From Leucoraja erinacea (taxonomy: Eukaryota): a DNA stretch of 64,000 bases. Positions within the stretch are counted from its first letter, which is position 1. Each line of letters opens with the position of its first letter. A program made the position numbers and the translations under genes. Positions 219 through 54,700 of this stretch are shown piece by piece. A model generated the notes under the pieces. It did no database searches. It was not told the origin of the DNA and was given only the letters and a program-made list of their open reading frames with translations. The stretch covers positions 32,302,001 to 32,366,000 of the forward strand of contig NC_073396.1 in NCBI RefSeq assembly GCF_028641065.1, in the 5' to 3' direction.

Positions 219-427
219 GTTACACAAAAAAGCTGGAGAAACTCAGCGGGTGCAGCAGCATCTATGGAGCGAAGGAAATAGGCAACGTTTCGGGCCGAAA
301 CCCTCAAGGGTTTCGGCCCGAAACGTTGCCTATTTCCTTCGCTCCATAGATGCTGCTGCACCCGCTGAGTTTCTCCAGCTTTTTTGTGTAACCTTCGATT
401 CTCCAGCATCTGCAGTTCCCTCTTAAA
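219..427. mobile_element. Palindromic Penelope-like (PLE) terminal-fragment insertion
   Basis: Near-perfect fold-back centred near 305; flanked by the 14-bp direct repeat CACTGCTTTCAATG (205-218, 428-441). Confidence 0.8.
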
Positions 428-654
428 CACTGCTTTCAATGTTGCTCTGGTTTTGAGTGATTCCAATTGCATACCAACAATTACATACCAATTAGCATCC
501 AGTGTTCGACTGGCATAAAGACAATAAACTTTTGAATGTGAATTGTGAGATTCTACAAAGATGGCAGGAATGAGAATAGTTTTGAGCAGTTGAGCCGGGA
601 GTTAAGGTGAAGAGAGAGGAGACTGAAGAGGAGTTTATTCTGACATTAAGGCTT

Positions 655-1083: not shown

Positions 1084-2472
1084 GTGAGTCTGAAGAACTG
1101 TATGAACGTTCGCAAGGAGGCCAATAAATAAGCCATCTGCGTGGTGCGTGAATTCCATAGGGAGTTCCTCTTATCCACAGCACAACAGGTTCTTCAGCTT
1201 ATAATAAATCAGAAATAATTCAGCAGGCACATGTTGTCACAATAACCTGAGTGTTGAGCATGCTGATGTTAGTTTGGGTGTGTCTGCGAAGACAGCTGCA
1301 TGATTCCTGGGATGTTGTCTTTAGGTGGATAGACACTTCTAGAATTTAGAAGATTGAAGGGGCCTAAGAAACTTACATTTGGGCTAGAAGAAGATTGCCA
1401 TGTTTTCCTATAAACTGAGAAGAACTTTTCTCACGCAGAGAGTGGTGAATCTCTGGAACTCTCTTCAGGAAGTTCATTCTATAATCTAGATGTGCCCGCT
1501 GATTCAGGGGGTATGGAGAGAAATCTGGTTCATCCATTATTTGCAGGCTCGAAGGGCCGAATGGCCTACTCTGCACCTAATTTCTATGTTTCTAGTAATA
1601 ACCTGAGGTTGAGCATGCTGTCCAAAGGCAAAATGTTTGTTTTCTGCCTGTGTTGGGAAAGCGTCATTTTATAACTGGAACTCATTGTACCGCTATATCT
1701 ATGCCACTGATTCAAATCTGGTTCACCAGTATTTCACTGTACTAATCACAGGTCCCGACCACGGGGGGAAATGGAGGATGTGATTTTGTGCCTTCCACCA
1801 CAGTGAAACTGATGTTTGTGTAAATTTGTGTATTGTTTTTGTGTGTTCTTTATCAATGCTATCTATACACACAATGTGACGCCTGATTGTTGAATATTGT
1901 ATCCATCTCTGCCTTTACTACTACACAACCTTCTGAGGCAAAGAATTCCACAGATTCACCATCCTCTGACTAAAGAAATTCCTCCTCATCTCCTTCCTAA
2001 AGGAACATCCTTTAATTCTGAGGCTTTGACCTCTGGTCCTAGACTCTCCCATTACTGGGAGTTAATTCATTTGTGTTCAATTTGTGTACCAACAGCATCA
2101 GTATGCTAACGAAAGATGGGGGAAAAAAGTAAAATATTGATGGGATACACTAGGACAAAAGATGACTAAAGGTTCTACTCCAGTGTCTACCAAAACAGTT
2201 GTGTACATGTTTAGTCTGAGATAAAAAAAACCTGAAATAATTTTTCAAGTAAACCCAAAGAGGTTGAAAGAAGGGAACTACAGTCATTTTAAAAATGGGT
2301 TATTGAAAAGGTTAATTGATCAATGGGATAATCTCCCAGGAAAAAAATATTTGGAACATTTAAAAACAAATTGGCATCTTGGGGTATATATGTTGATATA
2401 TTAAATGTTCTAATTTTAATCATAAGGTAAATCTTCTCTGGTTAAAACCGTTTGATGTATTTTCCCCTACAG

Positions 2473-2616: not shown

Positions 2617-3639
2617 GTAAGTATTAGTTCAATTTCTTGGCACCAGACTGAAAGGAAAAGGCCAGGGCTTAGAACATTGTCTGAACTGTTCAATCATTCA
2701 TTCATTTAATGTTGCTCATTACAGCACAGGAACATGCCCTTCAGCCCATGATATCTGTACGACTATGATGTGAATTGAAACCAATCCCATCTGCTTGCGC
2801 GTAGTCCATCTCTCTCCATTCCCTGTCTATTTAATCATGTGCATATCTGAATGCCTCTTAAATGTTGCTATTATTTAACAGCCACTGTTGCTTTTTCACC
2901 ACTTCCCCTGGTAGCACATACAAGACACCTACCACCTTGCATGTGAGGGGGGGGGGGGAAACTTTCCTCATAAATCACCTTTAAATTTGCCTCATGAATT
3001 TCCTTGTTGTTCACCATCCAGGACAATGTGCATTTTAGTTAATATTCCATGTTGAATTATTCCCTTTCTTCCTCAAGGATTGAATGAATATGCATTTCAG
3101 TCTTCGATCTTTGTGAAATGAAAACGTTGGAGTTTTGTTTTCACAATTGATAGAGGTCTTTAGGATACTGGCATTGCTGGTGAGGACAGCAATTATATGT
3201 ACCACTGTCCTCCAGAAGATGATGGTGAATCTTCTTGAAGTGCAAGTGTACAAAGTCCTGGAGAAACTCCAACTGGTCAGGCAGCATCTGGGGAGGGAAT
3301 GCACAGGAGACATTTCAGGTCAGGACAGTTCCTCAGTTTCTTTCTGGTGAATACAGAAAGGGCTGGCAATCTGGCATTGTGACAGATGAAACAAATCTCC
3401 CCAGTCTGTCAATGTGAGTGATGTGGGAGGAAAGGACAGTGTATGAGCAGCAAACCTGTCCATCATCACTCTGTCATTCAGCAGATAGGGGCTGGAGGTC
3501 ATTCTGTTTCTTGACTCACTTAAGCTTGGATTCTCTGTTAATTCTGTAAGGTGCAAGCTTAAACTAATCAAGAGCTTATTAGTTAGTGTGAATACCAAAT
3601 TTCTCAACTTCACCCGAACCAACAGTCTGTTTGTCCCTT

Positions 3640-4706: not shown

Positions 4707-5851
4707 GTAAGCATGGATATGAAGAATTTTTGTTGAAGGCCGTGTATTTGAAAAATATTTGTGTGAGGAAAGTGAAACCAGTCCTGTGCTGATTATTGTA
4801 TCATAATTGGAGTCTATGGGAATATTATACTCTGATTAAAGATGCTAAATTTGTCTAAGATATTGGTCTTGTAATTAATTTTAACCAGATTGTACTTTAA
4901 GGAAAATTCTTCCATCAATTAACTCAAAAAGACAAACCCGAACAGACATTTGTAGAGCTGCGTTTCACTGATAGATAATTAAATTAACTGGTTTAGATAT
5001 TCATGCAAATTCTGTTTTGGCATCACTGGACATAGAACAAATAAATTGAAATGTGCATCAGAATCTTAAGGGGCTCAGTTACTTGTGGTGCTTTAAGCCT
5101 TTACCTTCTGGCCTCCTACTGCATAGAATTGTATTCAAATCTCATCACAACAGGTTTAACTTAATTTAATTAAAGATATTTGGAATTAAATACCAGAATT
5201 AAAATGAAGCTGTCAGATTGTTTAGCGAATCCACCAGGGTCACTAATATCCTTCAAGATTTTTAGGCAACGCTGGTCTGTCTGTCTGTGACCTCAGACCA
5301 TTCTGCAATGTAGTTGAACCCTACCATGCCCTCTGAAATGGAGTAACAAAACAATTTATTGTACCAAACCACAAATAAATATCATGTGTACTAGAATCAT
5401 AAAGGGTGGTATGAAATAGGCAAAAATTACTGATCTTGCCAGTGATGTCCAGATCTCATAAATAAATTGTCAAATATTTAGCCTGATTTGTTAATCTTTA
5501 CGTTGGCGTTCCACTGCAATATGTGGAAGAATGTGCTCGGATCATTACTGCATCTGGTTTTGCCTTGCCTTCTTCATTCCTCCCCTCCTCTCCTGTGCAG
5601 CAAAGCTCTGACCTGTCACGTTACTCTCTGTATGAAGCCGAAACAGCGTCGCTGAGTTACTCCAGCTTTTTGTGTCTATCTTCAATTTTATTTAATGTTC
5701 TTTCCAAGGGTGAATCTGTGATATAAATGCAAGAGGCTGCACTTGGCTGATGAAGTTCTGACTGTCACTGGTGGGACCATCTCATTATCCCTGTTTGTTG
5801 CAGCGTATTCTTTGCCAGTCATGTAGGCTCTCCTGTGGTTCATTTCTTCAG

Positions 5852-6162: not shown

Positions 6163-6193
<31 letters not shown>

Positions 6194-6228
6194 CCTCTTG
6201 TCTGACTTTATTGTTTTTGTTCTCATAG

Positions 6229-7962: not shown

Positions 7963-8145
7963 GTGAGTAGTTTGGTTTGTGCTAACTGCAAGACTGGGAA
8001 CATCCTTGTTGTGGATATTAACTATATTGAGCTCAGACTGAACATTAAAAGGTGGGCTGCAGTGAAGTGTGAACCTTGTTTGATCCTCCCTATAAGCCAG
8101 CAGATAGCAGAATGATCTGAATTGCATTCCAACAATAATAAAGGT

Positions 8146-8274
8146 CTGAAGAAGGGTTTCAGCCCGAAACCTTGCCTATTTCCTTCGCTCCATAGATCCT
8201 GCTGCACCCGCTGAGTTTCTCCAGCATTTTTGACTACCTTCGATTTTCCAGCATCTGCAGTTCCTTCTTAAATA
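8146..8274 (+). mobile_element. PLE 3' terminal fragment with hammerhead-like core
   Basis: CTGAAGA-A-GGG..CCC-GAAAC followed by the family terminus; direct repeat AATAAAGGTCT at 8137-8147 and 8275-8285. Confidence 0.75.
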
Positions 8275-9009
8275 AATAAAGGTCTCTTCTCCCCTTAAAG
8301 AAGAATATTTTGTATCAGTAAAGTTCTGAGGCTTGGGAGGGATTGTTTAGCAGGTGACATGTTTACTTTTTAGCAGATGAACTTTGGTTCATGATGTCAA
8401 TGACACATTCATTATGTTAATCCACATTTTCAAGCATTCTTCTCAATCCAAGTTTCTGTTGGGAAATGTCCTTTCTTGGCATTATCCTTCTCAGGATAAT
8501 TCCATCTCAGCTACTTCCCATGTTTATTGATTTCTCTTTTCTCCGTATAACCTCCATGCATGCTATTGTACACAACTCCCTACTGCCATCCCCACCAAGT
8601 TCATGATCACTGCTCTCATGGTCCTGATCACCAACAAAGCTATCTCCGATCATGTGCTTTTCTCCACTATTGTCCACATCTGAGACTACCTTTCCATTCC
8701 GGTCGTCTCTTATTCTATTGATAAAACATCTCCCCCAGGTTGTGCACGACCCGCGTTTAACCGTGTACAGTTACTTTGGTCTTCCATTTTCCACAGTCCC
8801 TCTACAGCTAATGAACTGGTCTTCAACAACTCTTCCACCAAGGTCTTTGTCCCTTCTGTATTGTTCCGTCTGGTATGACCTTCCCCAACCTGCATCGTCA
8901 CCACAAATAATTCTGCCCTGCAGCTGGTGACATTATTCAGTTCTGGCTGTGTAGCAAGGGATGACCTAATGATTCATGCACTTCACAGAAAAGCAAGAAG
9001 AAACAAACT

Positions 9010-10100: not shown

Positions 10101-12739
10101 GTGAGGTTTTTTGCTTAGTAGTAGCCACTGGAGAGAAAGGTATTGTAATGTGAATTGAGTGCTTTTATTTTATTTTATTTTGATAGTTGTATTATATCTG
10201 TTGTCTTGTCTTGTATGATCTACCAACTGCAGATTGAGAACCTGATCTGGTGAAAGCAGTTTATATATGGCCTGGTGACAATAAAAATGCTGTGCATTGA
10301 AGACATGTCCAGGTTGCTTGATACATCTTGATGTACTTATGTGACACAAAGCATAACTTAAAATCAATTGAATGATGAACCATGATGATATACCATAACT
10401 TTACAAAGACAAAAGTGTATTGATTGAAATCACATGGTCCACAATGAACATCAGTTAAACTAGATTTAAAATTGTGTTGACAATTTCAAATGACAACATG
10501 GAATGTTAACACCCAATGTTGTCGTGCAATGACCTGCTCAAAGGCAGTTAGGGATAGGCAATAAATGCTGGCCTCGCTAGTTAAGCATTAACTAGTTAAG
10601 AATTAATGCTAAGCATTAGCATTAATGTTCAAGCATTATTGTTAAGCATTAATGCTCCAAAATTTGCACGTGGAGAATACTTTTAAAAATTGAAACAAGA
10701 AGTCTTTGAATGTACTTGAAAAGTCCATTAGATTATGACCATATGGAATATGGCCTGCGAATATTTAAGTCACCAATTCGTTTTGGAATCTCCTACGGGA
10801 ACGTTTTAGTAGTGTTTTGGCAAGAAATAAATTACCTGAAGTAGTTCCGCCATCAGCTTTAAAAGTTTAAGTAGTTCCAAGTTTAAAACGTTAAAAACAT
10901 GCAAGTTTTGTTGTGTTTAGTGTAAAGAAAATGTCCTTATGTTTGGCTCCTATGTTGATTTCACATCTCAGGCAATTGTCCGACTCTAAATGAAAGACAT
11001 CTCTCATCGTCCCCAAAAAATAACTAAGTCTAAACAGCATGCTCTCTGTCATGTGAGGAATCTCATGTTGTCTCCAAGGTCAGATTAGATTTTTAAAGCC
11101 ATCTTTATAGCATGTTTGTATCTTCTATTCCATACAGGTCTGTCTTCTAGCATATTTATAAAAAATTCATACACTTGGGCAACTTTTCATTCTCCATTTC
11201 TTTGTTGATAACATGACATTCTGTGTAATTCTTTGCCACAGAATGCTGTGGAGGCCATGTCAATCGATATTTTTAAGGCAGAGATAGATAGATTCTTGAT
11301 TAGTGTGGGTGTCGGGGGTTATGAGGAGAAGGCAGGAGAATGGGATTAGGAAGGAGTGATAGATCAGCCACGATTGAATGGCAGAGCAGATTTGATGAGC
11401 CTAATGGTCTAATTCTGCTCCTATCACTTATGACCTTATGAGTCCCCAGTCTCCTGCCTTATCTTGTCAAATGTATGCCTTTTGTAGGAAATGCTTTTGA
11501 ACCATTGACGGCACTTGTATCCACTCGCTTCTTTAGCCCAATTGGAATAAAGTTCACAAACCTCCACACCTATTACAGTAAGAAGAATTAATAGTCAGTC
11601 TACTTCTATTTCCTGCTTTGGCTTCATTGCTATAGCAATGTTTTGACAAACTAATTTGAGTATCTTCCACTTTCCTGCAACATTTACTTCATATATTTCA
11701 AGAGCCTGTGGTGATGACAGAATATTTCCCCGACATCTCAACATACACCTTGCAAATATTTTTTTAACAGCATGGCCATCTCCAAGATGTTCACTGAAAT
11801 AAAATGCACTGATTTCTCCCTGATCAATATGCTTCCCTGTGGATTGCTCCTCAGGATTAGAACACTTTTATTTTAAAGCAGAATCGAGGGTTGGATCATT
11901 TGATCTGCAGATCTATGATCATGCTACTAACCTTTCGATGTGCTCCCTGTGTCAATCTGGTTCAGTAGAGGAGAACCAGGGAACTGCAGGTGCTAGTTTT
12001 GAAAAAAAATGACTCAAAGTGTTGGAGTAACTCAACAGGTCAGGCAGCAGCTCTTGAGGACCATCTAGGTGTTTAATTTGGATCGGGACCCTTCGTTATA
12101 CTGAGTTGTGGAGGTGTGAGAAGAGCATTTTAGGTCTATTTGGCAAATTGTGGCAGTGTAATTGCCTAATCTGTGCAACCCCTTTTACATGGTCAAACTC
12201 CATCAAGGTTTTCCAGGATTTATAGACTGTCAACTGAATAGAGGTCTCTGCTGAGTGAGACCCCAGGATTGGCTGTCTGGGAGGCTATGGGTGGAAAGAC
12301 AGAATATCCATGTGGGGGGGGGGGGGCGGGGAGGGGGGGGGAGGGGGGGGGGGGGGGGTGAAAATGGAGGGATCTAATGTGGGAGTCAGGGAACTAATGT
12401 TGCAAGAAAAGGACACATTGCATTGGGGAAAGGTGAAGGATAGAGAATATTGATGGACTTTTGCAGAGAGCAAAGAAGGCTGCAAAAATAATTTCTTTAC
12501 ATTTTTAAAATATTTTGTTATTCAAAAACATTTCTAGGCCAAATACTGCTGATGCTGGACGTCTAAAATAAAAAACAGAAATGCTGGAAATACTTAGCAG
12601 GTCATGATGCACCGATGAGGAGAAAATACTGAGTTAATGTTTCGGATGAAATGGGAGTCCTTAGCAAGTTTTTTTTTTAAACCATTCCCTTGTTTGAATC
12701 ATCTTCGGGTTAGATTGAATTGAAAGATTCAATATAGTA

Positions 12740-13792: not shown

Positions 13793-14467
13793 TTGGAAAC
13801 TAATGTGCCAAGAAAAGGACACATTGCGTTGGGGAAAGGTGAAGGCTGGAGAATATTGAGGAGGATAGAGAATTAAACAGACGATCATGTGATCTCGATG
13901 AACTAATGCCGATATTTATTTGATGATGCCATGCATCTCACAGGTCAGTGGGAAATGCTGTTTGGGGCACTAGATTTCTGTGCAACTTGCAGTTATGTGG
14001 TTGTTCAGCATAAAACTGGATTACAGGTGCAGGAGGAGCAGCTTGGTCTGTGCTGGACAACTGTGGAGGGTGATTTTCTTTTGTAAAAGGATAAACAAAT
14101 ACTATGGACAGACAGGGTGACGATTCTGGTCGGGACCCTGCTTCAGAAACATCGCCTATCTATCTTCTCTGGGGATGCTGCTTGACCTGCCGAGTTATTC
14201 CATCACTTTGTGTCTTTTTTTGTAAACCAGCACTTGCAGTTCTTTGTTTCGACCATGGGCTGGCAGGGAAAAGTGTTTTGTTGAATTCCTGACCAGATTT
14301 TTCTCAACAGCAGATGAACATTTTAACATGATGTCCACTCACCCTGATGTCTGATTGAAGTCTCCTGCGCACGTGCTTATTTAGCCAAATGAACCAAAGG
14401 CGGATTGGAGAAACTGTCTTTCCATTGCTCAGTTCCTTGTTACTAACACTTTGGGTTTGACACGCAG

Positions 14468-14579: not shown

Positions 14580-14808
14580 GTAAGAGGCTCACTTTGAGGC
14601 AAAGGTAAATAGAGTGAATATTGAAAAGGAATGTACACTTTTCGTCATTAAACGGTGCCACAGGATGATCATGAGACTACTGCAAAATGGAAACATGCGC
14701 TGGAATCATTTGTTTCAAGTTCTGAAGACATGTTGGTGTGGGGTTCTGCTCACGTTACTGGCCTCTTATGGAGCTGTAGTCTGACTCGGATGCTGACCTT
14801 TTATCTCA

Positions 14809-15379
14809 AGAAGTGTTCAAGAAGGAACTGCAGATGCTGGAAAATCGAAAGTAGACAAAAATGCTGGAGAAACTCAGCGGGTGCGGCAGCATCTATGGAG
14901 TGAAGGAAATAGGCAACGTTTCGGGCCAAAACCCTTCTTCAGACTGATGCAGGGTGTGGGGGGGGGAAGAAGAAAGGAAGAGGAGGAGCCAGAGGGCTGA
15001 GGGAGAGCTGAGAAGGGGAGGAGACAGCAAGGGCTATCGGAAATTGGAGAAGTCACTGTTTATGCCACTAGGGTACAGACTGCCCAGGCGGAATATGAGG
15101 TGCTGCTCCTCCAGTTTCCGGTGTTGCTCACTCTGGCAATGGAGGAGGCCCACAACAGAAAGCTTGAACATTGACTTCTCCAATGTCCGGTAGCCCTTGC
15201 TGTCTCCTCCCCTTCTCAGCTCTCCCTCAACCCTCTGGCTCCTCCTCTTCCTTTCTTCTTCCCCCCCCCCCCCCCCACCCTGCATCAGTCTGAAGAAGGG
15301 TTTCGGCCCAAAACGTTGCCCATTTCCTTCGCTCCATAGATGCTGCCGCACCCGCTGAGTTTCTCCAGCAATTTTGGCT
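14809..15379. mobile_element. Inverted Penelope-like element remnant with GIY-YIG endonuclease C-terminus
   Basis: ~215-bp inverted arms (14849-15061 / 15167-15383); minus frame encodes GLLHCQSEQHRKLEEQHLIFRLGSLYPSGINSDFSNFR*; direct repeat ACCTTTTATCTCA at 14796-14808 and 15380-15392. Confidence 0.8.
14915..14942 (-). ncRNA. Minimal hammerhead ribozyme core (PLE-associated)
   Basis: CUGAAGA-A-GGG(UUUUGG)CCC-GAAAC-GUU. Confidence 0.6.
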
Positions 15380-15817
15380 ACCTTTTATCTCAGAGTTATG
15401 GGTAGAAATCGAACTATGGAAGGTGGAGGGAATGAATTTGGATAATTTGTCTTGATTCAGTTCTTTTTGGTCACCAGTGTCACTCGCAACCATTGAGGTT
15501 GTGGGGAAATACAAATGCTACATTGCAGAGTCACTTCGGTTTGTACACAGAGTGGATAGAGATTTACTCTGCACAGCTCTTCTGCATCCTATCTCGAAGA
15601 CAAGACAACGTTTCCCTTGATTTTGTTTCACTTTTTTCCCCCTTATTAACCTTTCTTTACCTTTCCGCTCCCTCTGCTTTTCTTTCTCTTACTTTAAGCC
15701 GAACGGTGTCACCTTTCCTAATTCATATATTTATTTGTTCTCAATTGTCTAACCATTTCTTTTAAAATGTCAACAGCTCCAAGTGAAAATGACATTTCAT
15801 TCCCTCTCTGCTTCCAG

Positions 15818-15934: not shown

Positions 15935-17935
15935 AGAATAATTTGAAAGTCAGTGCAGCAGATTTGGAGAGAAAATGGACCAAATGCCATGCCTTTTTTT
16001 AAAAACTGAAGTTGTTCTGCCAGTATGATCATTTGTCAAATGCCAATCATCTCAAACAAATAATGGTTTCTAACTGAACTCGAGACAATCTTCTTACAGT
16101 TTGGGTGTTTGCACTCTATGTTCCTGAATATTGTAATTTGTTCAATTTCACATTGTGTCTGCATGTTGTTCAATAGTCCTGCAGTCACCGACTCACGCGA
16201 GCTACTAGTTTGACATCTACTGAAAGAGAGATTAAAGCTAAACCCCAATACCCGCAGACTGTTGTGAAGCAAACTGGAATAGAGCTGTTCAATCTTTGCA
16301 AATACTGAATGCAGGCCATTGCTTCTATTTCAGACTGGATAATAATACTTGCCAATATCTATATTAAAGATACATGCAGAAATCAGAATGACTCTGATAA
16401 TGAAATTGTTTTCTTAATTCTGTTTAAGGAACCAAGAATTGATCTCATTGGGTTAGGGGAATAACAATTAATTTTTAAACTTTAGTATAAAAATGCTTTT
16501 TCTTATTATAGATTAGTTGCTGGGATTGTGATAGATAGATATAGATATGCCATTTATTGTCACTATACATGTACAATGAAATTAAAAGCTGCTCGTACTC
16601 AGTGCATACATATAATTTAGTACAAAAAACAAGAAACAGAAAACAAAAACAGAAGGGGGAAGGGGGGGATAGGTGCACAATTCTGCGGCGCTATATACAT
16701 ATATACAGATGGAAGTCCGGGTGTTGGGCTGTGAAGTCAGTGCATGTGTGAATTAAGAGTAGTTATAATTTTCGGAAAACAACTATTCCTGAGTCTATTT
16801 GTCCTGGATTTGATGCACCTATAGCGCCTTCCAGAGGGCAGCAGGTCGAACAGGTGTATCAGATTTTCAATGCTCTTTCACATTTCCCCTGAAGTAATTG
16901 GTGACCTGCTTCTTAAACCAATACAATTCACCTGGACAAACTATTTCCACAGAATTATTAGGGTGTTTGTGGATTTGATCTGATGATTAAAAGAACAGCA
17001 ATATATTAACAAGTGAGAATTAGGTTTTAAAATGGATGGGTTACATGTGAATGGTCTACTGCTTTATTCTTCAAAGTTACAAAAAATGCTGGTTTGGTGG
17101 GTAGTAATTGATGAGGTGTAACTTGGCCCAATAATGGGCTGCTTTGTCAGGAATTATGTTGAGTTCTTCTGGGGTTGTTGGCACCATTTTGGAGGATGTG
17201 AAGTCCACAACCAATATAATTTAGAGAAACAGCAACCTTCGGCCCACTGAGTCTATATTAATCAACGATCACCCGTGCACTCATTCTCTGTTATCCCAGT
17301 TTTGCATCCCACACACCACACACCAATGTGGAATGTGGGAGGAAACTGGGGCACCTGGAGAAAACCCACCTGGTCACAGGGAAATGTGCAAACTCTGTAC
17401 ACAAAATGCTAGAGTAACTCAGTGGGACAGGCTGCATCTCTGGAGAAAATGAATGGGAAACGTTTCAGGTCGGCATCTTTCTTCAGATCCCGCTTGGGTA
17501 GCTTACACCTAATGGTACGAACATTAAATCCTCCAGCTTCCCCCAGCCCAACTCTGGTGTGTTCCCATGTCCCCCACCATCTCCCAACACTCCAGTCATT
17601 CTGCTCCTTTCGCCTCCTTTGTACACTCATCTGCCATCCCAGAGTCCCATATTTCCAATTTATTCTCCCTTCCTTCACACCCCCCCCCCCCTTATCCCCT
17701 TCCCTCCAGTTTTACATTTAACTCCTCCTGACACCCTTCTGTCTCCTTTTCACAGCCGATGTTTGTCACTTAATTCATTAATCTGCCAATCCATCCCTCC
17801 CCCCACCAGTATGCACCTATCCATGGCCGTCCGTACCTCCCCTTTTTCCCCCAGAATAAGAAAAAATCCCGAGGGGAACAAATTGTTTTTTTTTAATCGG
17901 GGGGAAAAAAAAAATTCGGAAAAAAAATATCTGTT

Positions 17936-20660: not shown

Positions 20661-21689
20661 CTGTACTCTTTTCAATTTGACATCTTCCCTATAACATGGT
20701 GCCCAGAACTGAACACAATATTCTAAATGCGGTCTCACCAAAGTCTTATACAACTGCAACATGACCTCACAACTTCTGTACTCAATACTCTGACTGATGA
20801 AGGCCAAAATGCCAAAATACGTTTTGACCACCTGATATACCTGCGACACGACCTTCAAGGAACCATGCAACCATCAACCATTCCTCTGCCCACCTGGCTA
20901 ATTGATCCAGATCCTGCTGCAATCTTTCACAACCATCTTCACTATATGCAAGACCACTCACATTTGTATCATCAGCAAACTTGCTAATCTTGCCCTGTTC
21001 TGTGACGTTTCACAGAGTGCTGGAGTAACTCAGCGGGTCAGGCAGAGTATGGAGGTTGGGAGGTCATGTTGCAGTTGCATAAGAAGGTGGTGAGTCCGCA
21101 TTCAGAGTATTGTGTTCAGTTCTGGGCACCATGTTATAGGAAAGATGTCATCTGTGACATGTCATCTATCCATGTTCTCCATAGATGCTGCCTGACCTGC
21201 TGAGTTACTCCAGCATTCTGTGAAACGTCGCCTATTCATATTCTCCGCAGATGCTGCCTGACCCACTGAGTTACTCCAGCACTTTGTGTCTATTTTCCCT
21301 TCACCCATCTGCCCAAGCCCACTCTCCCCCCTCCCTTCCTATGTTCCTTTCCACCCATTAACTTCTCTCTGCCTTTACATTTCACTCCTCTTTCAAATCT
21401 GCTCTACTTATCTACATTCATTTTTCTTCTTAACGTTTTAGCCATTGAATGATGCAGTGTGGAAACAAGCCCTTCAGCCAAACTTGCCCACACCGACCAA
21501 CATCTCCCATCTAAACTAGTCCCACTCGCACGCGTTTGGCCCATATCCATCTAAATCTGTTCTATCCATGTACGTGTCTAAATGTCTCTTAAACATTAGG
21601 ATAGTCCCAGCCTTAACTACCTCCTCTGGCAGCTCGTTCCACACACCCAGCACCCTTTGTGTGAAAAAGCTACCTCTCAGATTCCTGTT

Positions 21690-36700: not shown

Positions 36701-39700
36701 GATAAAGATGTTCTTGGGGCTTGCACCTGTTAATGCTTTAATCATGGGTCACCATTTCAGATTATATGTGACAATGCTGTAGAGCTTTGATCTAATCATT
36801 TGGTTATGGGATCACTTCATTGTGTGCTTTATTTCACTGTTTGGCACGCGTAATGTCCAGAGTTACAACTTGGATTAGTTGGAACCTCGCTTTTAGCTAC
36901 GCAGGGTGCTGGTCCCAGCTGTGCCAGTCATCCAGTCATTGAAGTTGGGTAAAGATCTGATCAGATTTGTAATTGTCATATATACCAATGTGCAATGAAA
37001 TTCCTTGATCATCTGAAGCTCACAGAATAAACAGTATACCTACTGTAGTGATAAATACAACAATTAGCACAATGACGGATGCAAAAGAGCAGAATTGTGC
37101 AAAATAAAGTGTAATAGTGGAATAACTACAAGAGATAGAGTTATAGGAATACATGACAGCATCTCTGAAAAGTGGGTGTAAAATAGTTGATTGGTTCAGG
37201 AGTCCGACAGCATTGTGGAAGAAGCTGTTCTTATGAATTGATGTTCATCCTTTAATATTCCTGTATTTTCTCCCAGAAAGTAGAAGGGAGAAAAGGGAAA
37301 GGCCAAGGTGGTAGGCGTCCTTGATGATACTTTAGTCCAGCCTTCCAGATGAAACACTACATGAAGATGCACTGGATGGAAATAAGTGATAAACCTGTGA
37401 TGGACTGGCCTGTGATCACCACTCTGAAGAAGGATCTCAACCCGAAACGTCACCCATTCCTTCTTTCCAGAGATGCTGCCTGTCCTGCTGAGTTACCTTT
37501 GATTTAAACTAGCATCTGCAGTTCTTTCTTACACATCATCTCTCTCTCTGCAGTTTGAGGCAGTCAAGAGCAGAGCAGTTGCCATACCAGGCTGAGATAC
37601 GTAATATTAGAATATTTTCTGTTGCACATTCCTACAAGTTTGAGAGAATCCTCAAGGATATGCTGAATCTTCTCGGATGCCCAACAATTGAAAAATGTTG
37701 CTGTGTTTTCCTGATCACTGCATCATTGTTTAGGGACTATTTAGGTTCCTTGTGATAGGGATACTGAGAAATATGAAGCTGCACGGCAACTTTGTTGATG
37801 AGGACAAGGTTTTATTTGAGCCCTTGCTTTATGTCAATAACGTGCACTTTTGGTAACATTAAGGGCTAGGTTACTGACATGTTTGTAACCCGTTGATTGG
37901 TGCATAATTACAGAAGCCGTCCAGAGACTCCTTTCAGATAGTTCACTTTCCAGAGGTTTATTTACCCTTGTGAAAGCAGATCTGACAACTGCCAGTGAGA
38001 TGTATGGGTAGAGCAGTGGGGGATGGGGGGATGCACCTCAGTTGAATTTTGTTCAAATTGAGCGTAAAATACATTGAGCTCATCCAGTAGCAGTGCTTTG
38101 TTGCTGCAGACCCCCCCCCCCCCAGTTTCAGCTTGTTGCCCATGATTATATTCAGGCCCTGCTGCAGTTGCCTGGCATCTGCTGGATTGAATTTAAAACA
38201 AAACTAGCTATTTTGTTATGCATATTGATGCATTGAATGAGCGTTTGATTGTAGTCATAAGGTAAATATTCTAAAATCTCCTCTGGTTAAAACCATTTTA
38301 TTTATTGCCCCCTACAGTTGGTGTACTCGTGTTCTCCTTTCTTATTGTGCTGGGCTCGGCCACCTTTGCTTTGGGATCTCATTTCAAGGGGACCCGTTAC
38401 CTATTGCCTCTGATGCTCATCGGCCGACTTATTTTTGGCTCAAGCAACGGGTCACTCATGAGTAAGTATTAGTTCAACCTGTGGGGACCAGACTGTGAAG
38501 AAATGCCCAGAGGCTTTGTATTAATATTCTTCATTGTTTAAATCAGTCAATCACTCATCCAATGTTCACTATCCAAAATATTCCAACATTTTATTGTTTT
38601 TTTTTTAGTTAGTTAGCACCCTTCTTGATTAGTATGGGTGCCAGGAGTTCTGGGGGAGAAGGCAGGAGAATGGGGTTGAGAGCGTAAGATAGAGCAGCCA
38701 TGATTGAATGGCGGAGTAGACCTGACAGGCCGAATGGCCTAATTCTGCTCCTATGACATGAATTTGTTATAGGGCTGATGAAAATGTCCACACTTTCTTC
38801 TAAAGCAGACAGATCTAACAGTAGATTGAAACAACACCATTTCCCAGTTGTGTGTTCTATTTCCAAGAACACGTCACTCACATTCTGTTCTTTGTCTCTC
38901 CAAAATCTCAGTTGCTCAAGATCGAATCACTGCGTTCTGGTTCAAAAATAAGGAGCTGTCGTTGGCCTTTGGGCTGAAAATGGCCTTCTCCCGTTTTGGT
39001 AGTGTGCTCAACTTTCTATTAACCCGGTCCTTTGAGGCACACTTTGGGATTCAGTGGACACTTTGGGGAGGTAAGCATGAATTTGAGGAATTTGATGAAG
39101 GCACTGGAATTGAAAAATAGTCTTGCAAGTGAAATCAATCCCGTGCTGGACTATTATTGGAGAACATCAAAGTATTAAATACGGTGTCAAGATCTCAATT
39201 CATTCAAAGGGATTAATTGTATAATTAACTAAATTGCATTTTTCAGATAATGCTTACATCAATTAACCAATAACTTAAAAGTCAGAGCCAAATAGAAATT
39301 GGAAGTGCTAAACGTCACAGACTAATTTTGTGATTAATGATAACTGATAGCTGGTTTTGATATTGGTGCAAATCAGCCTATCCAGTCATTCCTCATTACA
39401 CAAGCCCTTCAGTCCTAGTATTATCCTTCTGAATCTTTACTGAACAGCGAGTTGAGTTGTGTTTCATAATCTTAAGGGGCACATGTCACCTGGTGCTTTA
39501 AAGTATGTGCCTTCTATTGCAAATTATTGAAATATCTCAACTTTAATTAAATATATTTATTGAATAATAAATGTGGCCCACCATCATAAATGTGGCCCAA
39601 ATCGTGTTCACGCTAGTTCTACGTTATCCCACTTTTGCATCTACTCCCTACATGCTTGGTGCAATTTATAGTGGGCAACCTAGAGGGTAAACTCCACACC

Positions 39701-42700: not shown

Positions 42701-45700
42701 TCCGTGCAAGCTTTTTCTTGCATGCTCCCCCCCCCCCCCCCCCCCTTCCCTCTTAATTAACCCCTTTGTCCTCCTCTGTTGAGTTCTAAAATTCTCCCAG
42801 TCTGGTTTACTGCTTCCTCTGGCCAATTTATATGCCTTTTCCTGGGATTTAACACTATCCTTGATACCCCTCGTAAGCCACGGTTGTGCCTCCTTCCCTG
42901 TTTAATTTTTTCGCCAGACAGGGATGAACAATTTTTGGAGTTGATCCATTTGGTCTTTAAATCTTTGCCATTGCTTTTCCACCGTCAACCCTTTAAGTAT
43001 AATTTGCCAGTCTATCCTAGCCAATTGCCGTCTCATTCCTTCAAAGTCTCCTTTCTTCAAGTTCAGGACCCTAGTCTCTGAATTAACAATGTCACTCTCC
43101 ATCTTAATGCAGAATTCCACCATATTATGGTCACTGTTGCCCAAGGGGCTTTGCACAACAAGATCGCTAACTAATCCTTCCCCATTACACAATACCCAGT
43201 CTAGGATGGCCGGTCCTCCAGTCGGTTCTTCTACATATTGGTTTAAAAAAACCATCCCGTATACATTCCAGGAAATTCTCCTCCTCAGCTACCAATTTAG
43301 GTGGCCCAGTCTATATGTAGATTAAGGTCACCCATGATAACCGCTGTACCTTTGCTACACGCATCCCTAATTTCGTGTTTGATGTTATCCCCAACCTCCC
43401 TACTGCTGTTTGGTGGTCTGTATACCACTCCAACAAGCGTTTTATGCCCTTGGCTATTTTGCAGTTCTATCCATACCAATTCTACAGCATCCAAGCTAAT
43501 GTCTCTCCTTGCTACTGCATTAAGCTCCTCTTTAACCAGCAATGCCAACCCACCTCCTCTTCCTTTCTGTCTATCCTTCCTGAATATCGAATACCCCTGC
43601 ATGTTTAGCTCCCAGCCTTGGTCACCCTGGAGCCATGTCTCTGTAATTCCAACTATATCATATTCCTTAGCTACTAACTGCACATTCAATTCATCCACCT
43701 TATTACGAATGCTCCTCGCATTAAGGCACAAAGCTTTCAGGTTAGTTTTTCTTATCTCCCTTTTACCTTTTGCTTCTGTCCTCCTTTTATGTCCCTCTGT
43801 CTCCTTGCATTGGTTCCCATCCCCCTGCCCAGTTAGTTTAAACGTGACCTTTTCCTACACTCTCCCGTTAACTGCATGCAGACTCTTCCACGTTGTTGAC
43901 CCCACCCGCCACTGTTTAGTTTAAACCCACACATGTAGCACTAGCAAACCTGCCTGCCAGAATGTCGGTGCGCTCCAATTACGGTACAACCCGTCCCTTT
44001 TGTACAGGTTACCCCTGCCCCAGTCGAGATCCCAGTGATCTAGAAATCTGAATCCCTGCAGCCTGCACCAACTCCTCAGCCACACATTCAGATATCCTAT
44101 CTCCCTGCTCCTACCCCCACTAGCACGAGGTACTGGAAGCAACCCAGAGATAACCACGATAGAAGTCCTGCTTTTCTGCCTCCTACCTAGTGCTGTATAC
44201 TCGCGTTGCAGAACCTCCTTCCTCTTGTTACCCACGTCATTTGTGCCTCCATGCACAACTACTACCGGCTGTTCACCTTCCTTCTCGAGGATGAGAGGGA
44301 AGACGGTCTGAGACATCTAGGACCCTGGCACCAGGGAGGCAACACATCTTCCTCGAGTCTCACCTGTCACCACAGAATCTCCTGTCCGCACCTCTGATAA
44401 TGGAGTCACCCACTACTATGGCTCTGCCTGACGTTGGTCTTGCTGGTTGAGCCTCAGCGCCAGGATTCGAGTCGCAGACCTATCTGCCGCTCAGTGGACT
44501 GGAAGCGTCGTCTGCCCCAACAGCTCCCAAGAGGGTGTACCTGTTTTCAAGAGGTACTTCCACCGAGGTCTCCTAAACTAATTTCATCCCCTTCCTTTCC
44601 ATCTCTAACATGTCACACCTCCTGCACTCTGTGGAGTGACGACCTGACTGTATGTAGGTCCTGTCCAGCTTTTGTCTTCCCAGATGGACCGCAGGTCATC
44701 CAGCAGCTGCTCCAGTTCTTTAACTCAGACCTTGAGGAGCTGCACCTGGACCCAGTTCCTAAAGGTGTAGTGGTCAGTGACACCAGCAGTGTCCCTGACT
44801 TCCCACATCCTGCAGCAAACGCACTGCTGTAATATTCCTGCCATCACGTCAATAAGTTAAAAAAAATTAAATTTAATTTAACACACAACTAATTAAATGT
44901 AAGGTACACAAAATTGCTGGAGAAACTCAGCGGGTGCAGCAGCATCTATGGAGCGAAGGAAATAGGCAACGTTTCGGGCCGAAACGTTGCCTATTTCCTT
45001 CGCTCCATAGATGCTGCTGCACCCGCTGAGTTTCTCCAGCAATTTTGTGTACCTTCGATTTTCCAGCATCTGCAGTTCCTTCTTGAACACTGATTAAATG
45101 TAGCCTCCTCGCTGAAGGCTCTTGAGCCAAAGACTACACTTTACCTCTCCAAGGCTCGCCACTCCCAACAAGCTAACCTGCACTTAATTTTATCTAACCA
45201 AGACAACTATCCACTCAACTAATTAGGATGTCTCAGTTAATCCACTCCCTCGCTGGTCTGGCTGCTGCTCCTCTGTGACCTTCACCTGAAATTTGCCTAC
45301 ATTTGATCCATATTTGCCTGCATCTAAACATTCCTTTCCACGTATCTGCCTAAATGTCTTTTAAACTTCACTTCCTCTGCAGTCCGTTCCATATAGTCAT
45401 CACCCTCTGTTACCCTACTTGTCCCCTGGAAACCTTTCACCTTGAATCTATGCCCTCTCATTTCGGACTCCACAACCTAGGAAAACGACTGTGATCATTC
45501 ACCAACCTATACAGTCACTACTCATAACTGAAGCCCTTCCGTCCCTGTAATATCCTTCTGAATCTTTCTTGTACCTTTTCCACCGTAATGACATCCTTTC
45601 TACACCAAGGTAACCAGAAGTGCACACAATACTCAAAGTATGGACTTGCCATTTCCACAGATGTATCATGACCTCCCAACTCTTGTACTCAGCGCCCTGA

Positions 45701-48700
45701 CCGATGAAGGGAAACATATCAGATGTTTTCTTTAGCACCCTGTCCAACTGTGTCGCTACTTTTGGAGAACTCTGTACTTGAACCCCTAAGTCTTTCTATT
45801 TTACTAATTTATTGTGTAAATTCTATGCTGGTTTGCCAAAGGGCAACACTTTGCATTTGACATTAAATTCTATGTTGACCCAAAGAAAGTGAATTAAAAA
45901 TGAGTAACATGCAAATTTAATATGAATTAAATGTGAATAACCTTAGCACCAGATTATTGTGGTTTTGCTGTAATGGACACACATTTGAAACTTCAAACGG
46001 CGGAGATAGAGTGGATAGAAGGAACTGTTTCCACTAACCGAGAGGTCAATAATTAGAAAGGCCATATTTAAGAACATTCTAGAGAATTAGAGAACAACTG
46101 AGAATCTATTCATGCAGAGGTCGGGAACTTGATCAAAGGGTTTTGAAGGCCACAACTTGCATCACGTTGGAAATGTAACAAAGGAGGGCTAGATGTAGAC
46201 AATTTCAAAAACTGGGAACTGTCAACAGTTTTTTGGGCTGGAATTGATTGGTAAAATAGCCTGCAGATGTGCCAAATAATTCTGATTTACCTCTAATCTT
46301 GGGAAAAGTAATTTCTTGGACCATTTTTGACATTGCTTTGAAGAACGTTTTATTGCATGTTCCATCCATCTGTGCCATGTGACAAGAAGCCGCACTTGGA
46401 TGCAGAAGTTCTGTCACAGGTGGGACCATGTGATATTCCCGTTTGTTGCAGCGTATTCTTTGCCAGTCATGTAGGCTCTCCTGTGGTTCATTTTCTCAGG
46501 AACCTTGCTGTGTGTTCTGAGCTTTGTGTCGGCCATCATTATTGGCATCCTGGATGGGAATGGAGCAAAACAGTTGGGACTAGATGGAGTCCTTCAGCAG
46601 GAATCCAAGAAAGTGGTAGGTGGATTCATGGACATAAACTATTGCTTTTGGGTTCAGAATTGATTATCTGATTATCAGTCGTTATGCAGAGTAATCCTTG
46701 GTCTTTGAAGTAGATTTCTGGCAGCTGGGATCCATAAGATCAGTTTGCTTTACTTTCACTGAGTCGGATCTAACTCCACCTCCCCAACTCCCCAATTCCA
46801 CAATATCTTCTCTGACTTTTCTGTTCTTTTTCCCCCAAAGAGGCTGCAGGATATTCGCCACTTGTCTCTCCGCTACTGGTTGCTTGTTCTCACCATCATG
46901 TTCTTCTATAATGGAATTTTTCCATTTATTGCAGATGCCAGGTAAGCAGAGTTCATGATATTAGTTCTCTAAGGTTCTTATTACCATATTCCTAATGGTC
47001 CTATATGACTGATTATGTGTAGGGTCTGGTTTAAACTGAAGATAGACACACAAAACTGGAGTAACTCAGCGGGTCAGACACCATCTCTGGAGAAAAGGAA
47101 TAGGTGATGTTTCGGGTCGCGTCCCTTCTTCAGACTGAGAGTCAAGGGAAAGGAGAATGAGAGATATAGATGGCACATAGAACAAAGAAAAGAAAGATAT
47201 GCAAAAAGCAACGTTGATCAAGGATAGGTGGAGCCCACAATGGTCCATTGCTGGCTGTGGGGGTGGTGATAACAAGTTATACAGACAGTGACAGTGAAAC
47301 TAGTATGACGACGAGGGTGGGGGAGGGACACACAGAGAGAGGGGATGTAAGGGTTACTTGAAGTTAGAGAAATCAATATTCATACTGCTGGGTTGTAAGC
47401 TGCACATGCAAAATATGAGGTGCTGTTCATACAATTTGCACTGGCCCTCACTCTGACAATGGAGGAGGCCCAGGACAGAAAGGTCAATATGGGAATGGGA
47501 GTTAAAGTCTTTGGCAGGAGTTCAGCGACCCAAAACGTCACCCATTCCTTTTCTCCAGAGATGCTGCCAGTCCTGCTGAGTTACTTTAGCTCTTTGTGTC
47601 TATCTTAGCATTGATAGATTGTTTGACTGGCGTTATATGAACAGAAAGTAATGTAGGCATAAATAAGCTCTAAGAAATATTGTTCTAATGGTGTGATCGT
47701 GTTATTTAGGTCACAATTGAAGTCTGCTAGTTTATATAGTAATTATCATGGCCTGTTGTTATAGTTTTAAGCGTTGGTTAGTTGTATGGAACACTTCTAC
47801 AGGGTTATTAATAAAATTATAAAATAGGAAAATCAAATACTAGTTGCCATTACATGTAATGAAGGCATTTATTTTTCAGCAAGTTTATACAGGATAAGTA
47901 TCCGGGCTACAGTCAGCAAGAAGCCTCGTACATCACTGGTGCTGTGTTCGATACCTCGTTGATTCTGTTGCCCATAGCTGGAATCCTCATTGTGAGTATT
48001 GTGTCATTTGCTTTAACTGCAGGGTAGTGTGTGATCACTGGGAATATCAGGTATCCTTGTAGTGGATATTATGTGGCATTGAGCTCACGGTGAACCTTAA
48101 AGAATGCACAAAATTGAGTCTTTTTAATCACTTTTATATACTGGAGGATAGCAGGGAGGTTTGAGTCACATTCCAACACAAATTCCCCCTGAAGAAGGGT
48201 CCCAACCCGAAACGTCACCTATCCGTTTTCTCCAGAGATGCTGTCTGACCCGCTGAGTTACTCCAGCATTTTGTTTCTATTCCCTCATCATGTTGCCTAT
48301 TCTCTCATAATTTCTCTGCTTCAATCTACATCTTTGACAACCGTTTTAATGTGGTCTCCTCCAATTCTGAAATGAGAAAATAAAAATCTCCAGGTTGTGT
48401 AGAATCCATGTTTGAGCTTGCAGCTCTTCTATTTTTCTCAACCACCTGCTTCTTCTGCCTTATCCTTGTCCCATCTTTCCTTTGTGCCTGGTCTGACCCT
48501 CTCCAGCCTTTCTTCATTGCTGCCATGAGTACAATGTATGAAAACTAGAACAACTCTACCACGCAGCTGGTGACATCATTCAGATCTGGCTGTGTAGCAG
48601 CCTAGCCCATGTGACATACGTGAGTCATATGCTTTCATGGAGGGAAGAAGCAGTAATAAAAATATAAAATAAATTGTATTGTAAAGACAAAAATTAAGTC

Positions 48701-51700: not shown

Positions 51701-54700
51701 TGTTTTCGCAAACTAACTTGAATTCAAGAGTCAATGGTGGTGGCAGATTATTTCCCCCACCCGTCACGCACAGTTAACCTTGCAAACAATTCTTAAACAA
51801 TGTGGCCAGTTCCAAGATGTACATCAAATTAAATTATGAAACATCTTCCAGACACGATCTGTAGATAAGCATATTATTTTAATGGTAAATATAAGAATTA
51901 TGGAACTACTGACGTTCTGATTGCGCTCCTTGTGAATCTAGATTAGTTGAGTTGTGGATGGAACTCTTTGGTCCATCGGGCCGGCAGTGGCAGTTTAAGT
52001 AGGGATCTGAAATGGAAATGAAGGGACAATGGAATCCAGGGAGGTTTTCTGGAAAAGGTTTTCCCTGGAAGCCATCTTGGAGGACCAAGTAATCATGTCA
52101 TCCACATTCACCAGACCAGTCCGGTGGCTCATAGTCATAGTCAAACAGTGTGGAATGAGGCTCTTCGGCCCAACTTGTCCTCACCAACCAACATGTCCCA
52201 TCTACACTAGTCCCACCTGCCTGCATTTGCTCATATCCCTCCAAACCTATCCTATCCATGTAGAAGTCTGAATGTTTCTTAAACGTTGCCATGGTATCTA
52301 CCACAACTAAATCCTCTGGCAGCTCGTTCCATACACCCACCACCCTTTGTGTAAAATAAGGCTACCCCTCGGGTTCCTATTAAATGTTCTCACCCTTGCC
52401 TCAAACCTGTGTCCTCTGGTCCTCGATTCCCTTTATCTGGGAAAGGGACTGGGTATCAATCTTCTTGGTCGATGCTTCAATATGGGTGGACCAGGAGATG
52501 TTGTTGGTGGTATTGACTTCGAGAAATGTAAAGATTTTGACCATCTCTACTTCGGCACCGTCAATGCACACTCCCTGAAGTTGATCACTATCTCCTTTGT
52601 CTTGCACATGTTGAGAGAAAGGTTGTTGTCTCGACACCGGGACACAAGGTTCTCAATCTCCTACACAAGGTTGCCAATCTCTTACACCAGGACACACGGT
52701 CCTCAGTCTCCTGAGACCAGAGCTGCCCAGTTTACAAAGGGATACACAAAGTTGTGAAAGGAAGGTGAGACTATTGCTGAAATCTGAAACCAAAAGGAGA
52801 ATGCTGGAAATACCCAGGTTGTATCTGTGGAAAGAAAAATACTTAGTTAATATTACATACGCATAACCTTGCAGCATAAGTGGCATGTTATCTAAAAATG
52901 TTGCATTCAATATTTCGTTCTTAAGGCTGCAAAGTGCCCAGACAGAAGATTTAAATGCCAAACCGTATGTTTGGTTTTGATATACAGCGTATAATAAAAC
53001 CTCACAGAGAGGTCAGTGGGAATGGGGTTGAGAATTGAACAGTCAGGTAAATAGTTCGGGGTAAGCCTTGCAGACTTAAATGGGATGTTCTCCAAAACCA
53101 CATTTTGTGGTTTCAATGTAGTGGGACTATATCAAGAGTTTTAAATGCAATACAATAGACTGGAAGAAAGGCTAGAAAATGTAAATACATAACTGGATTG
53201 TGTGACCTCAGCACCCAATGCCTGCGACATGATAAGTTGCATCGTTGGTCAGTAGGAGATGGTGTTTGGGTCTCTTTGGACGGTTATGAGATCCTGTGGT
53301 TTTCCAGCATAAAACTCAATTACTTACGAAGAACACCTTGGATGATGGAGAGGCATTTTTTGTTAAAAGGGGCAAGACAGGTTTTCTGTTTTTTCCCCAG
53401 GATTTTTATTTTCATTTCAGATTTGCAAATGTAAAAATTTGGAATTACTGTTGGTATTTTCATAATCCATTTTTTTTTTTTTTTTTAAGTCAAATGAACC
53501 AAAGGCGGATTGGAGAAACTGTATTTCCATTGTTCAGTTCCTTGTTACTAACACTTTGGGTTTGACACGCAGTGACGTGAAGATCCCAGTGTGGTGCTGG
53601 CGGCAGGTGATGATCTTCATGCTGGCCAACACCATCTGCTGTGTGGTCGTCTCCGTCCTTCTCAATATAGTGGACAGCAGACAGGTAAGAGGCTCACTTT
53701 GAGGCAAAGACTTAAATGTGGTGAAAAGTTCACATTATTCCTTAAATATTGCTGGGGATGGTCATGGGGGTTGGTGCTATATAAAACGCGTGCCGGAGAA
53801 AATGTTTTCCTGACCAAGGAGGGGAGCTGGTGCAGTCCTGTTCATGCACGACTGTGGTCTGACTTAGATGCTGACCTTCTTCTATGTCTGGGTTGACGGT
53901 AGAATCTAGAGCAGATGAAATGAAAGTCTATGAAGGATCTCCATGAAGCAGGTGTGTACAATTGGTCTTGATCCTGGTTCATCTGGACACCATGTGCAGG
54001 GAGGAACTGCAGATGCTGGTAGCGAAGATAGACACAAAATGCTGGAGTAACTCAGCGGGTGAGGCAGCATCTCTGGAGAAGGAATGGGTGACGTTTCGGG
54101 TCAAGAGCCTCTAGTTCTAGTTTCCCTCGCCCCTGACTATCAGTCTGAAGAAGGGTCTCAACCCGAAACGTCAGATTCCCTCTCTCTCGAGAGATGCTGC
54201 CTGACCCTCTGAGTTACTCCAGCATTATGTCTATTAATAAGACATTATTTGGTAGCATCTCAGATGTAAGGAAAATTGCTACTTGCTGAAGTCATATTGG
54301 TATTATATTCCAAACAAAGTGGATAGATTTATTGTGCTTTGCCTTTTCTCTCTTACCTAGATATTGTGTCCATAAACAGACATAGTTATTTTTCTCTTTT
54401 CTCAATCCCTTTGTTCACTTTTATTAATCTTCCTTTCTCTTTCCTCTTGCCATAGGTTTTCCACTTTCTCTCACAATTTAAACCACACTTTGCCATCTTT
54501 CTCAACTCGCATGATAATTGTTCATGTTTTTTTATCGCTGGAAGAACCATGATCGTATTCTATAATAAAAGTGATATTTAGTTGTTTTATCTTAACCTTG
54601 CTCCTGCCTATCCCAACTATAATGTTGACGATGTTGACTCTTTGCTGGCAATGATCCTTTCCAATCAGAAGCTGTTGAGAATGAGTGCTGACAGTCCGCT

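Follow-up and report, generated by a model that had tools for sequence, protein, structure and literature searches.

The repeats studied here lie in a 64 kb stretch of the little skate genome (Leucoraja erinacea, GCF_028641065.1, contig NC_073396.1, positions 32,302,001 to 32,366,000; hereafter the window, with positions counted from its first letter). A short terminus carrying a minimal hammerhead ribozyme motif recurs there many times, either solo or joined head to head. These repeats are very probably the ends of endonuclease-bearing Penelope-like elements, likely of the Neptune type, left as 5′-truncated, dead-on-arrival insertions made from uncut RNA. The element order, the inverted partners, the target duplications, the end positions and the neutral decay of the copies are direct observations. 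The terminus copies are real and very abundant but belong to an already known kind of feature, their own trait being a short helix I.

Terminus copies, endonuclease and hammerhead cores

A preliminary annotation made from the letters of the window (the sequence-only reading) had described the ribozyme-bearing terminus as the most frequent short repeat and as a high-copy sequence, and both statements hold. Indeed, among the direct-repeat families of the window the terminus ranks first in size (D1, 11 copies). It is about 130 nt long, and a profile built from 11 of its copies returned 31 matches at E ≤ 0.01, versus none in the reversed window used as a control. Together with the attached untranslated region (UTR) and endonuclease pieces, the copies amount to 4,657 bp, or 7.3% of the window. 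In addition, 105,070 contig records of a single public run (X1) align to the 381 bp between 14790 and 15170, with 6,981 in run X15 and 6,551 in run X17, the depth of such records being no measure of copy number. As this stretch was present in 20 of the 22 public runs listed (13 studies, at least nine organism labels), the terminus family is clade-wide.

The elements follow one order: endonuclease C-terminus, stop, a pyrimidine-rich UTR of 90–230 nt, the hammerhead, a conserved segment of about 65 nt and, in some copies, a tail of about 36 nt. The link between the terminus and GIY-YIG endonuclease remnants, already proposed in the sequence-only reading, was recovered at three places, each on the minus strand (15037–15165, 32732–33103 and 47357–47515); the core behind the remnant at 32.7 kb is degenerate. 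The longest remnant (P0001, with X at its two stops) has 585 protein relatives at E ≤ 0.001, the top five coming from the whale shark, the little skate and a stingray. Longer relatives from echinoderms and metagenomes display RVT_1 followed by a C-terminal GIY-YIG domain, with 30–39% identity over the endonuclease. A Pfam search with P0001 itself gave no family; its nearest intact relatives match PF01541, mostly below the cut-off of that family, and a word-based protein search among longer proteins yielded one match. A CX2-5CxxC linker was found in four of four relatives inspected, in the skate and ray proteins P0004 and P0005, and in 31 of the 55 testable matches. Judging from these protein comparisons, the skate element is likely of the Neptune type.

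Three proteins annotated in skate and ray (P0004, P0005 and P0006) end in a Penelope endonuclease fused to unrelated DUF4518 or long interspersed nuclear element (LINE) reverse transcriptase sequences, and are probably gene-model artefacts built from Penelope debris.

The same association exists outside the skate. Among the best 80 of 443 metagenome loci encoding Penelope protein relatives, 30 extend for at least 300 nt after the endonuclease; a hammerhead-like motif lies 86–406 nt 3′ of the endonuclease on the coding strand in 12 of these 30 loci, and on the opposite strand in none. Two of these cores (loci L003 and L073) differ from the core of window subfamily B in loop II only, and a third locus (L007) has a hammerhead downstream plus an inverted copy upstream. 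On one contig, two tandem Penelope-like open reading frames (ORFs; L035 and L036) have hammerheads between them, with a 6-nt palindromic helix III and a 6-bp helix I; two of these hammerheads stand 100 nt apart, a dimer-ready arrangement.

Seven hammerhead cores had been listed in the sequence-only reading, and all seven were found at the same positions and on the same strands (table 1), together with the extra A between A9 and G10.1. The boxes CUGANGA…GAAA…NUH, the extra base after A9 and the G10.1–C11.1 pair are kept in six of them, the remaining core, at 15290, bearing the G12>A change already reported. Two other claims stood in part. Helix III was said to be the palindrome ACGU: this is true of five cores and of the majority sequences of subfamilies A and B, but the core at 8146 reads ACCU and that at 47106 ACAU. 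Stem II pairing was said to be largely kept: changes between subfamilies do preserve the pairs, but the core at 37424 has a mismatch.

A covariance model derived, without any window sequence, from 12 hammerheads found at Penelope loci of non-vertebrate-like type in metagenomes placed the seven cores at ranks 1–7 (E from 2e-6 to 9e-3, these values being rough). It gave 10 matches in the window at E ≤ 1, and ranks 8 and 9 are further terminus copies. Both the core features and this independent model support the reading of the motifs as minimal type I hammerheads of Penelope-like elements. A strict hammerhead descriptor accepts three of the seven cores (14942 −, 48189 + and 54145 +), with one further chance match at 19822, shuffled windows averaging 0.26 matches.

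Helix I is indeed short, as first described: it comprises 2 bp in both subfamilies (U-A or U.G, then G-C), versus 3–6 bp in all seven relatives scored. The window motif is best taken as a short variant, since a 2-bp helix I has been published for D. virilis Penelope (PMC4209133), in which an intron ends right at the point before the 5′ arm of helix I (PMC4209133; intron, PMC2377424). Compensatory changes affect seven of the eight pairs in the hammerheads of relatives, evidence that is partly circular because these relatives were chosen with a pairing descriptor. Neither predicted monomer folds nor dimer energies separated window copies from relatives.

Three further structural observations were made. 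Folding predictions pair the pyrimidine tract before the hammerhead (14943–14975 and 47134–47170) with the core's 5′ half, which is rich in purines, and the same pairing is predicted in two relatives (L069:1110-1133 and L073:1925-1950), a possible off-switch in uncut RNA. Stem II's 3′ strand is imitated by the four bases that follow the cut site (e.g. 14909–14926 and 48205–48222); this mimic is GCCC/GCCU in subfamily A and ACCC/ACCY in subfamily B, and both segments change together between subfamilies. Finally, in the copy at 8140–8179, the target sequence supplies a helix I of 4 bp, longer than the family's own, while the helix III palindrome is mutated.

Identity reaches 90–95% within subfamily A and 63–88% within subfamily B. 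The comparison of core and flank conservation, suggested in the sequence-only reading as a test, came out differently at two levels. Between subfamilies, the majority sequences differ at none of 16 core positions versus 20 of 94 downstream positions (Fisher p=0.04). Within copies, departures from the majority of subfamily A are alike in core and flank (2/74 versus 7/330), and those of subfamily B are 8/127 versus 71/576 (p=0.06). The differences between A and B beside the core are tolerated ones, namely a GUU or GUC triplet and U.G or U-A pairs in stem II and helix I. A GUU triplet would cleave more slowly than GUC. As A and B agree at all 16 core positions while young copies decay evenly, the motif is kept in the master lineages and not in the copies. 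On these alignments, the hammerhead is under selection in master elements, and dispersed copies decay neutrally.

The sequence-only reading had further called the family ribozyme-bearing, with uncertain activity. That the repeats are ribozyme units working as such is not supported: most copies have lost part of the core, and the two cores of a fold-back lie on opposite strands and so are unable to dimerise in cis. In fold-backs, the sense core is paired into a predicted hairpin of −130 to −454 kcal/mol. We assign a very low probability to the idea that some intronic copies are live ribozymes that dimerise across a host pre-mRNA and cut it. Two intact cores, 48189 and 54145, do stand 6 kb apart on the sense strand of one transporter-like gene, both with ACGU. 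However, their helix I does not exceed 2 bp, the first lacks the 5′ arm and the second is buried in a fold-back hairpin; for none of the seven window monomers does the predicted probability of helix I exceed 0.03 (it is also low in relatives), the core is unprotected in young copies, and published minimal hammerheads are weakly active even as adjacent dimers (PMC4209133).

Copy starts, insertion anatomy and proposed mechanism

Start positions were numbered relative to the hammerhead cut site, three automatic starts (14144, 21008 and 34840) being corrected or set aside by eye. Nineteen of the 31 copies start between −29 and −1 and two downstream (+25 and +35); seven extend into the UTR and four or five into the endonuclease, and three old copies are ambiguous at −30 or beyond. 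In all, 29 starts lie upstream of the cut site, and not one coincides with +1. Set against starts distributed evenly from −29 to +40, the surplus is significant (p=5e-6 by arms; 5e-5 when each fold-back is counted once), these values being somewhat inflated because shorter copies are harder to detect. The favoured starts are G12 (−7 to −9), stem II with its loop (−13 to −21) and the 5′ edge (−27 to −29). Cleavage products as templates were also considered, and were rejected given the lack of starts at +1 and the single copy starting within 3 nt of the site.

Public contigs display a related pattern. In all three informative runs (X1, X15 and X17), summed contig depth falls 9- to 10-fold on crossing the core's 5′ edge, and the same runs contain loose ends with unrelated flanks at 14944/14945, none being at the cut site among those listed. 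The RNA label of X15 and X17 is presumptive and is no sign of transcription; the one run of raw reads (X22) is from an unrelated organism, with four reads aligned, and the small-share plant-metagenome run X20 is not counted as evidence. Part of the fall arises because UTRs are subfamily-specific; with endonuclease bins as the reference, the excess amounts to 2.4- to 5.6-fold. Units of 135 nt joined head to tail were also detected, in seven contigs of X1 and one of X15, with variants bearing 12 or 33 extra letters in X17; such joints would represent a dimer-competent, retrozyme-like minority.

This depth fall, the loose ends and the joints are the features expected of a separate non-autonomous unit of about 135 nt, spanning the hammerhead 5′ edge to the tail, SINE-like (short interspersed nuclear element) or retrozyme-like, with its own transcription, perhaps from head-to-tail arrays whose dimers self-cleave and circularise, and mobilised by the Penelope protein; tandem retrozymes derived from pseudo-long terminal repeats (pLTRs) occur in one chondrichthyan genome (10.64898/2026.07.22.740005). 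We nevertheless hold such a unit to be improbable: the 5′ ends are scattered over the −29 to −1 interval while other copies run on upstream, short and long copies carry the same subfamily sequence, the tandem joints are few beside 105,070 records, the depth fall is partly explained as above, and only one of the nine Xenopus dimers tested cleaved (10.64898/2026.07.22.740005). In the window itself, no head-to-tail units with a complete hammerhead in each, the hallmark of retrozymes, were found.

A motif YCAG stands directly 5′ of the helix I 5′ arm, after the pyrimidine-rich tract, in all seven UTR-bearing copies, whose UTRs are otherwise unrelated. Taken with the 2-bp helix I and the ends of complementary DNA (cDNA) at or inside the motif, it raises the rather unlikely option that the hammerhead is a landmark instead of a knife, giving rise to 135-nt SINE-like copies. 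If so, a splice acceptor or transcript start at this point would give a 135-nt cDNA resembling a strong-stop product, and splicing would exchange the 5′ arm of helix I and so toggle the ribozyme. No GT..AG ends were seen among the contig joints listed. An AG precedes helix I in none of 12 relatives, and hence the splice-acceptor idea is not clade-wide.

The anatomy of the insertions was then compared between copies. In the four clean fold-backs (213, 14811, 44895 and 53993), the tail of about 36 nt is present on exactly one arm, and two of the joints (213 and 44895) coincide with self-complementary words in the core. Target duplications of at least 10 bp flank five of 16 units versus seven of 500 random pairs (p=1e-5), including four of the five young subfamily A units; they are AT-rich and 11–16 bp long. 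The sequence-only reading had seen in these repeats a distinct derived family. This view is not supported, as there are at least two subfamilies plus older copies, variable 5′ ends and the ordinary anatomy of truncated Penelope elements.

Inverted termini and target duplications may also recall miniature inverted-repeat transposable elements (MITEs), and when the window was searched against Rfam, the 13 matches at E ≤ 1 included no hammerhead family, and only sub-threshold matches to microRNAs were obtained. That the repeats are MITEs or SINE-like sequences resembling a hammerhead by chance is nonetheless hardly credible. MITEs are defined by fixed terminal inverted repeats and by the lack of a link to a retroelement ORF, whereas the arms are unequal, the joints variable and the sequence continues into a Penelope endonuclease; moreover, a model drawn from unrelated Penelope loci puts all seven cores on top, and relatives show the (partly circular) compensatory changes. 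We consider this alternative as already refuted by the endonuclease linkage and the independent covariance model. For annotation, about 7% of the window is Penelope-end debris that repeat or small-RNA tools may take for MITEs, SINEs or microRNA hairpins.

Truncated insertion from uncut Penelope RNA could proceed as follows. By analogy with the biochemistry of a related element, the element protein would nick both strands of an AT-rich target with a stagger of 11–16 bp, and reverse transcription would begin at either of two sites in the terminus, giving the short end or the tail end. The cDNA would usually halt after 80–135 nt, inside or at the 5′ edge of a folded or protein-bound hammerhead; alternatively, it might stop at the RNA's own 5′ end, if the transcript starts at the hammerhead edge. 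When both nicks prime, two cDNAs would be joined head to head via self-complementary hammerhead words, generating a fold-back with a one-sided tail. Joining of a cDNA to the target or to the second cDNA may rely on microhomology. In master elements, the hammerhead would be weak, working solely as a dimer in tandem transcripts and probably with the help of protein; dispersed copies would not cleave.

Several points weigh against this scenario or its parts. A full-length element of the terminus family was not seen in the window and metagenome scan, and a scan of the window found no Penelope reverse transcriptase remnant. The endonuclease remnants stop short of the CX2-5CxxC linker, so that the Neptune assignment leans on relatives, and Nematis elements share this linker. 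By the descriptor used, 18 of the 30 related loci lack the motif, and an exact degenerate pattern scan of metagenomes gave no match. Concerning selection, long blocks common to A and B also exist downstream, meaning that the core is not the sole constrained part, and the p-value of 0.04 is modest. Finally, the sharp 5′ boundary at the hammerhead edge is unlike random truncation, so that a short template with defined ends is conceivable.

The papers covered leave unsettled what the hammerhead does in Penelope-like elements, and skate-type genomes offer a good data set for this question: their many copies record the start and the stop of cDNA synthesis, and indicate an uncut template with synthesis ending at the ribozyme.

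Other features of the window

The window also contains an old tandem duplication (approx. 2350–15950 and 38190–55050, offset by 34–41 kb) of a plus-strand gene with several exons that encodes a membrane transporter. Exons are 86–96% identical and introns approximately 75–80%; one exon matches Pfam MFS_1 below its cut-off, and we take the gene to be MFSD1-like. The two paralogs harbour independent insertions of the terminus, 8137–8285 (subfamily A) and 48182–48284 (subfamily B), which share their orientation and almost share their place in the intron, and at which the intron similarity breaks; this coincidence may reflect a hot spot or chance. The possibility that copies at corresponding places of the two genes are older than the gene duplication was rejected, as they are of different subfamilies and the young ones among them carry target duplications of their own. 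Many fragments of LINE-type reverse transcriptase, presumably CR1/L2-like, occur on both strands (18620–19490, 26100–28900, 35280–35770 and 40440–42690), and a GC-rich minisatellite with 10- and 20-nt units (D11) occupies 17950–18120.

Table 1. Terminus copies, hammerhead cores and endonuclease remnants in the window (strand '.', unit not assigned to one strand).
Positions	Strand	Feature	Details
205..443	.	fold-back, young subfamily A	arm 219-305 (-, short end) and arm 306-429 (+, tail) meet inside stem II; 16-bp target duplication, 1 mismatch; CUGAAGA half absent from both arms
3246..3336	-	old solo copy	first base is C3 of degenerate core
5650..5688	+	short fragment	starts 35 nt 3′ of cut site
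8137..8285	+	solo subfamily A, hammerhead 5′ edge to tail	core 8146-8173, helix III palindrome broken; 11-bp target duplication
11978..12115	-	old copy	degenerate core and some upstream UTR
12545..12646	-	old copy	first base in stem II 3′ strand
14102..14250	.	old fold-back	minus arm ends at core 5′ edge; plus arm begins at G12
14796..15392	.	best-preserved unit, subfamily A	endonuclease C-terminus, UTR, hammerhead, terminus and tail on minus arm; tailless inverted 5′-truncated partner on plus arm; target duplication of 13 bp
14915..14942	-	intact minimal hammerhead core	triplet GUU; stem II of 4 bp, helix I of 2 bp
15037..15165	-	GIY-YIG endonuclease C-terminal remnant	41 aa with 80% identity to P0006 of the little skate
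15290..15317	+	core with G12>A	inside fold-back hairpin
17392..17830	.	inverted unit	minus arm from short end to 5′ edge of degenerate core 17459-17486; plus piece resembles last endonuclease codons and pyrimidine-rich UTR (by eye; right end approximate)
21008..21299	.	three pieces without core	two head to tail
24904..24990	-	solo subfamily A	first base in loop II
25665..25769	-	solo subfamily B	first base in loop II; tail present
29016..29097	-	old degenerate copy	
30156..30261	-	solo subfamily B	first base G12; tail present; 11-bp duplication, 1 mismatch
32427..33103	-	longest remnant	GIY-YIG domain of 123 codons containing two stops (P0001), then UTR, degenerate core and terminus
34736..34937	.	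old degenerate fold-back	
37403..37535	+	subfamily B copy	tail present; internal deletion; one mismatch in stem II of core 37424-37451
44888..45102	.	subfamily A fold-back	joint at imperfect palindrome in stem II/GAAAC; tail on right arm only; 14-bp target duplication, 1 mismatch
47017..47609	.	subfamily B fold-back	minus arm: endonuclease remnant 47357-47515, UTR, core 47106-47133 (palindrome broken); plus arm begins in loop II
48189..48278	+	solo subfamily B	first base exactly C3; intact core; helix I 5′ arm missing
53993..54234	.	subfamily B fold-back	minus arm with tail, first base in stem II; plus arm: 35 nt UTR and intact core 54145-54172, 1-bp helix I
55106..55183	-	old copy	UTR and degenerate core

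Comparison with known systems

A literature search, with Repbase and Dfam outside its scope, found no description of the skate terminus family or of the clustering of 5′ ends; in PMC9605692, the passages covered make no reference to Penelope. The published systems compared below are taken from the parts of the cited sources that were covered.

Minimal hammerheads were described in the pLTRs of metazoan Penelope-like elements by Cervera and De la Pena (2014; PMC4209133), including the Neptune, Poseidon and Xena elements of fishes. The skate motif shares with them the type I core, the extra base between positions 9 and 10.1, the G10.1–C11.1 pair, the palindromic 15.2–16.2 and the absence of loop 3; these hammerheads likewise occur as abundant single dispersed motifs and as opposite-strand pairs 100–700 bp apart. 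Helices are longer there, with 7–8 bp in helix II versus 4 bp in the window, and 4–5 bp in helix I versus two. Cartilaginous fishes are not named in the text and supplement covered, while a further supplement may list more species.

Non-LTR retrozymes (Li, Clavereau and Pollet, bioRxiv 10.64898/2026.07.22.740005) resemble the skate repeats by their type I hammerhead derived from pLTRs and by their presence in the one chondrichthyan noted above among the genomes sampled. Unlike the dispersed and inverted pieces of the window, they form tandem arrays with a whole hammerhead in each unit.

The green anole's Poseidon element PAc (Frangieh et al. 2024; PMC11167929) offers a biochemical counterpart. 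There, the target is cut on both strands, reverse transcription has two start sites that correspond to the two tail ends, the hammerhead cleaves only with the protein, and the main template is uncut RNA. Similarities with the skate copies include two 3′ ends that differ by the tail, AT-rich targets, a hammerhead located upstream of the reverse transcription start sites and uncut RNA as template. However, PAc belongs to a different clade and its ORF begins in stem II.

The closest counterpart in anatomy is provided by the Neptune and Nematis units of Craig et al. (2021; PMC8557442), in whose covered parts 5′ ends inside the hammerhead are not mentioned, and the density of the window (31 pieces in 64 kb) is very high by comparison. 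These units show the same strong 5′ truncation, an inverted truncated neighbour, a tail of 30–40 bp at one end and, at the C-terminus, a GIY-YIG domain, and the CX2-5CxxC linker is shared by relatives of the window elements. Because the inverted partner, the one-sided tail and the target duplications match this published unit, the skate copies are truncation debris of known elements and not a separate family; as they stand, they are an annotation matter and no new system.

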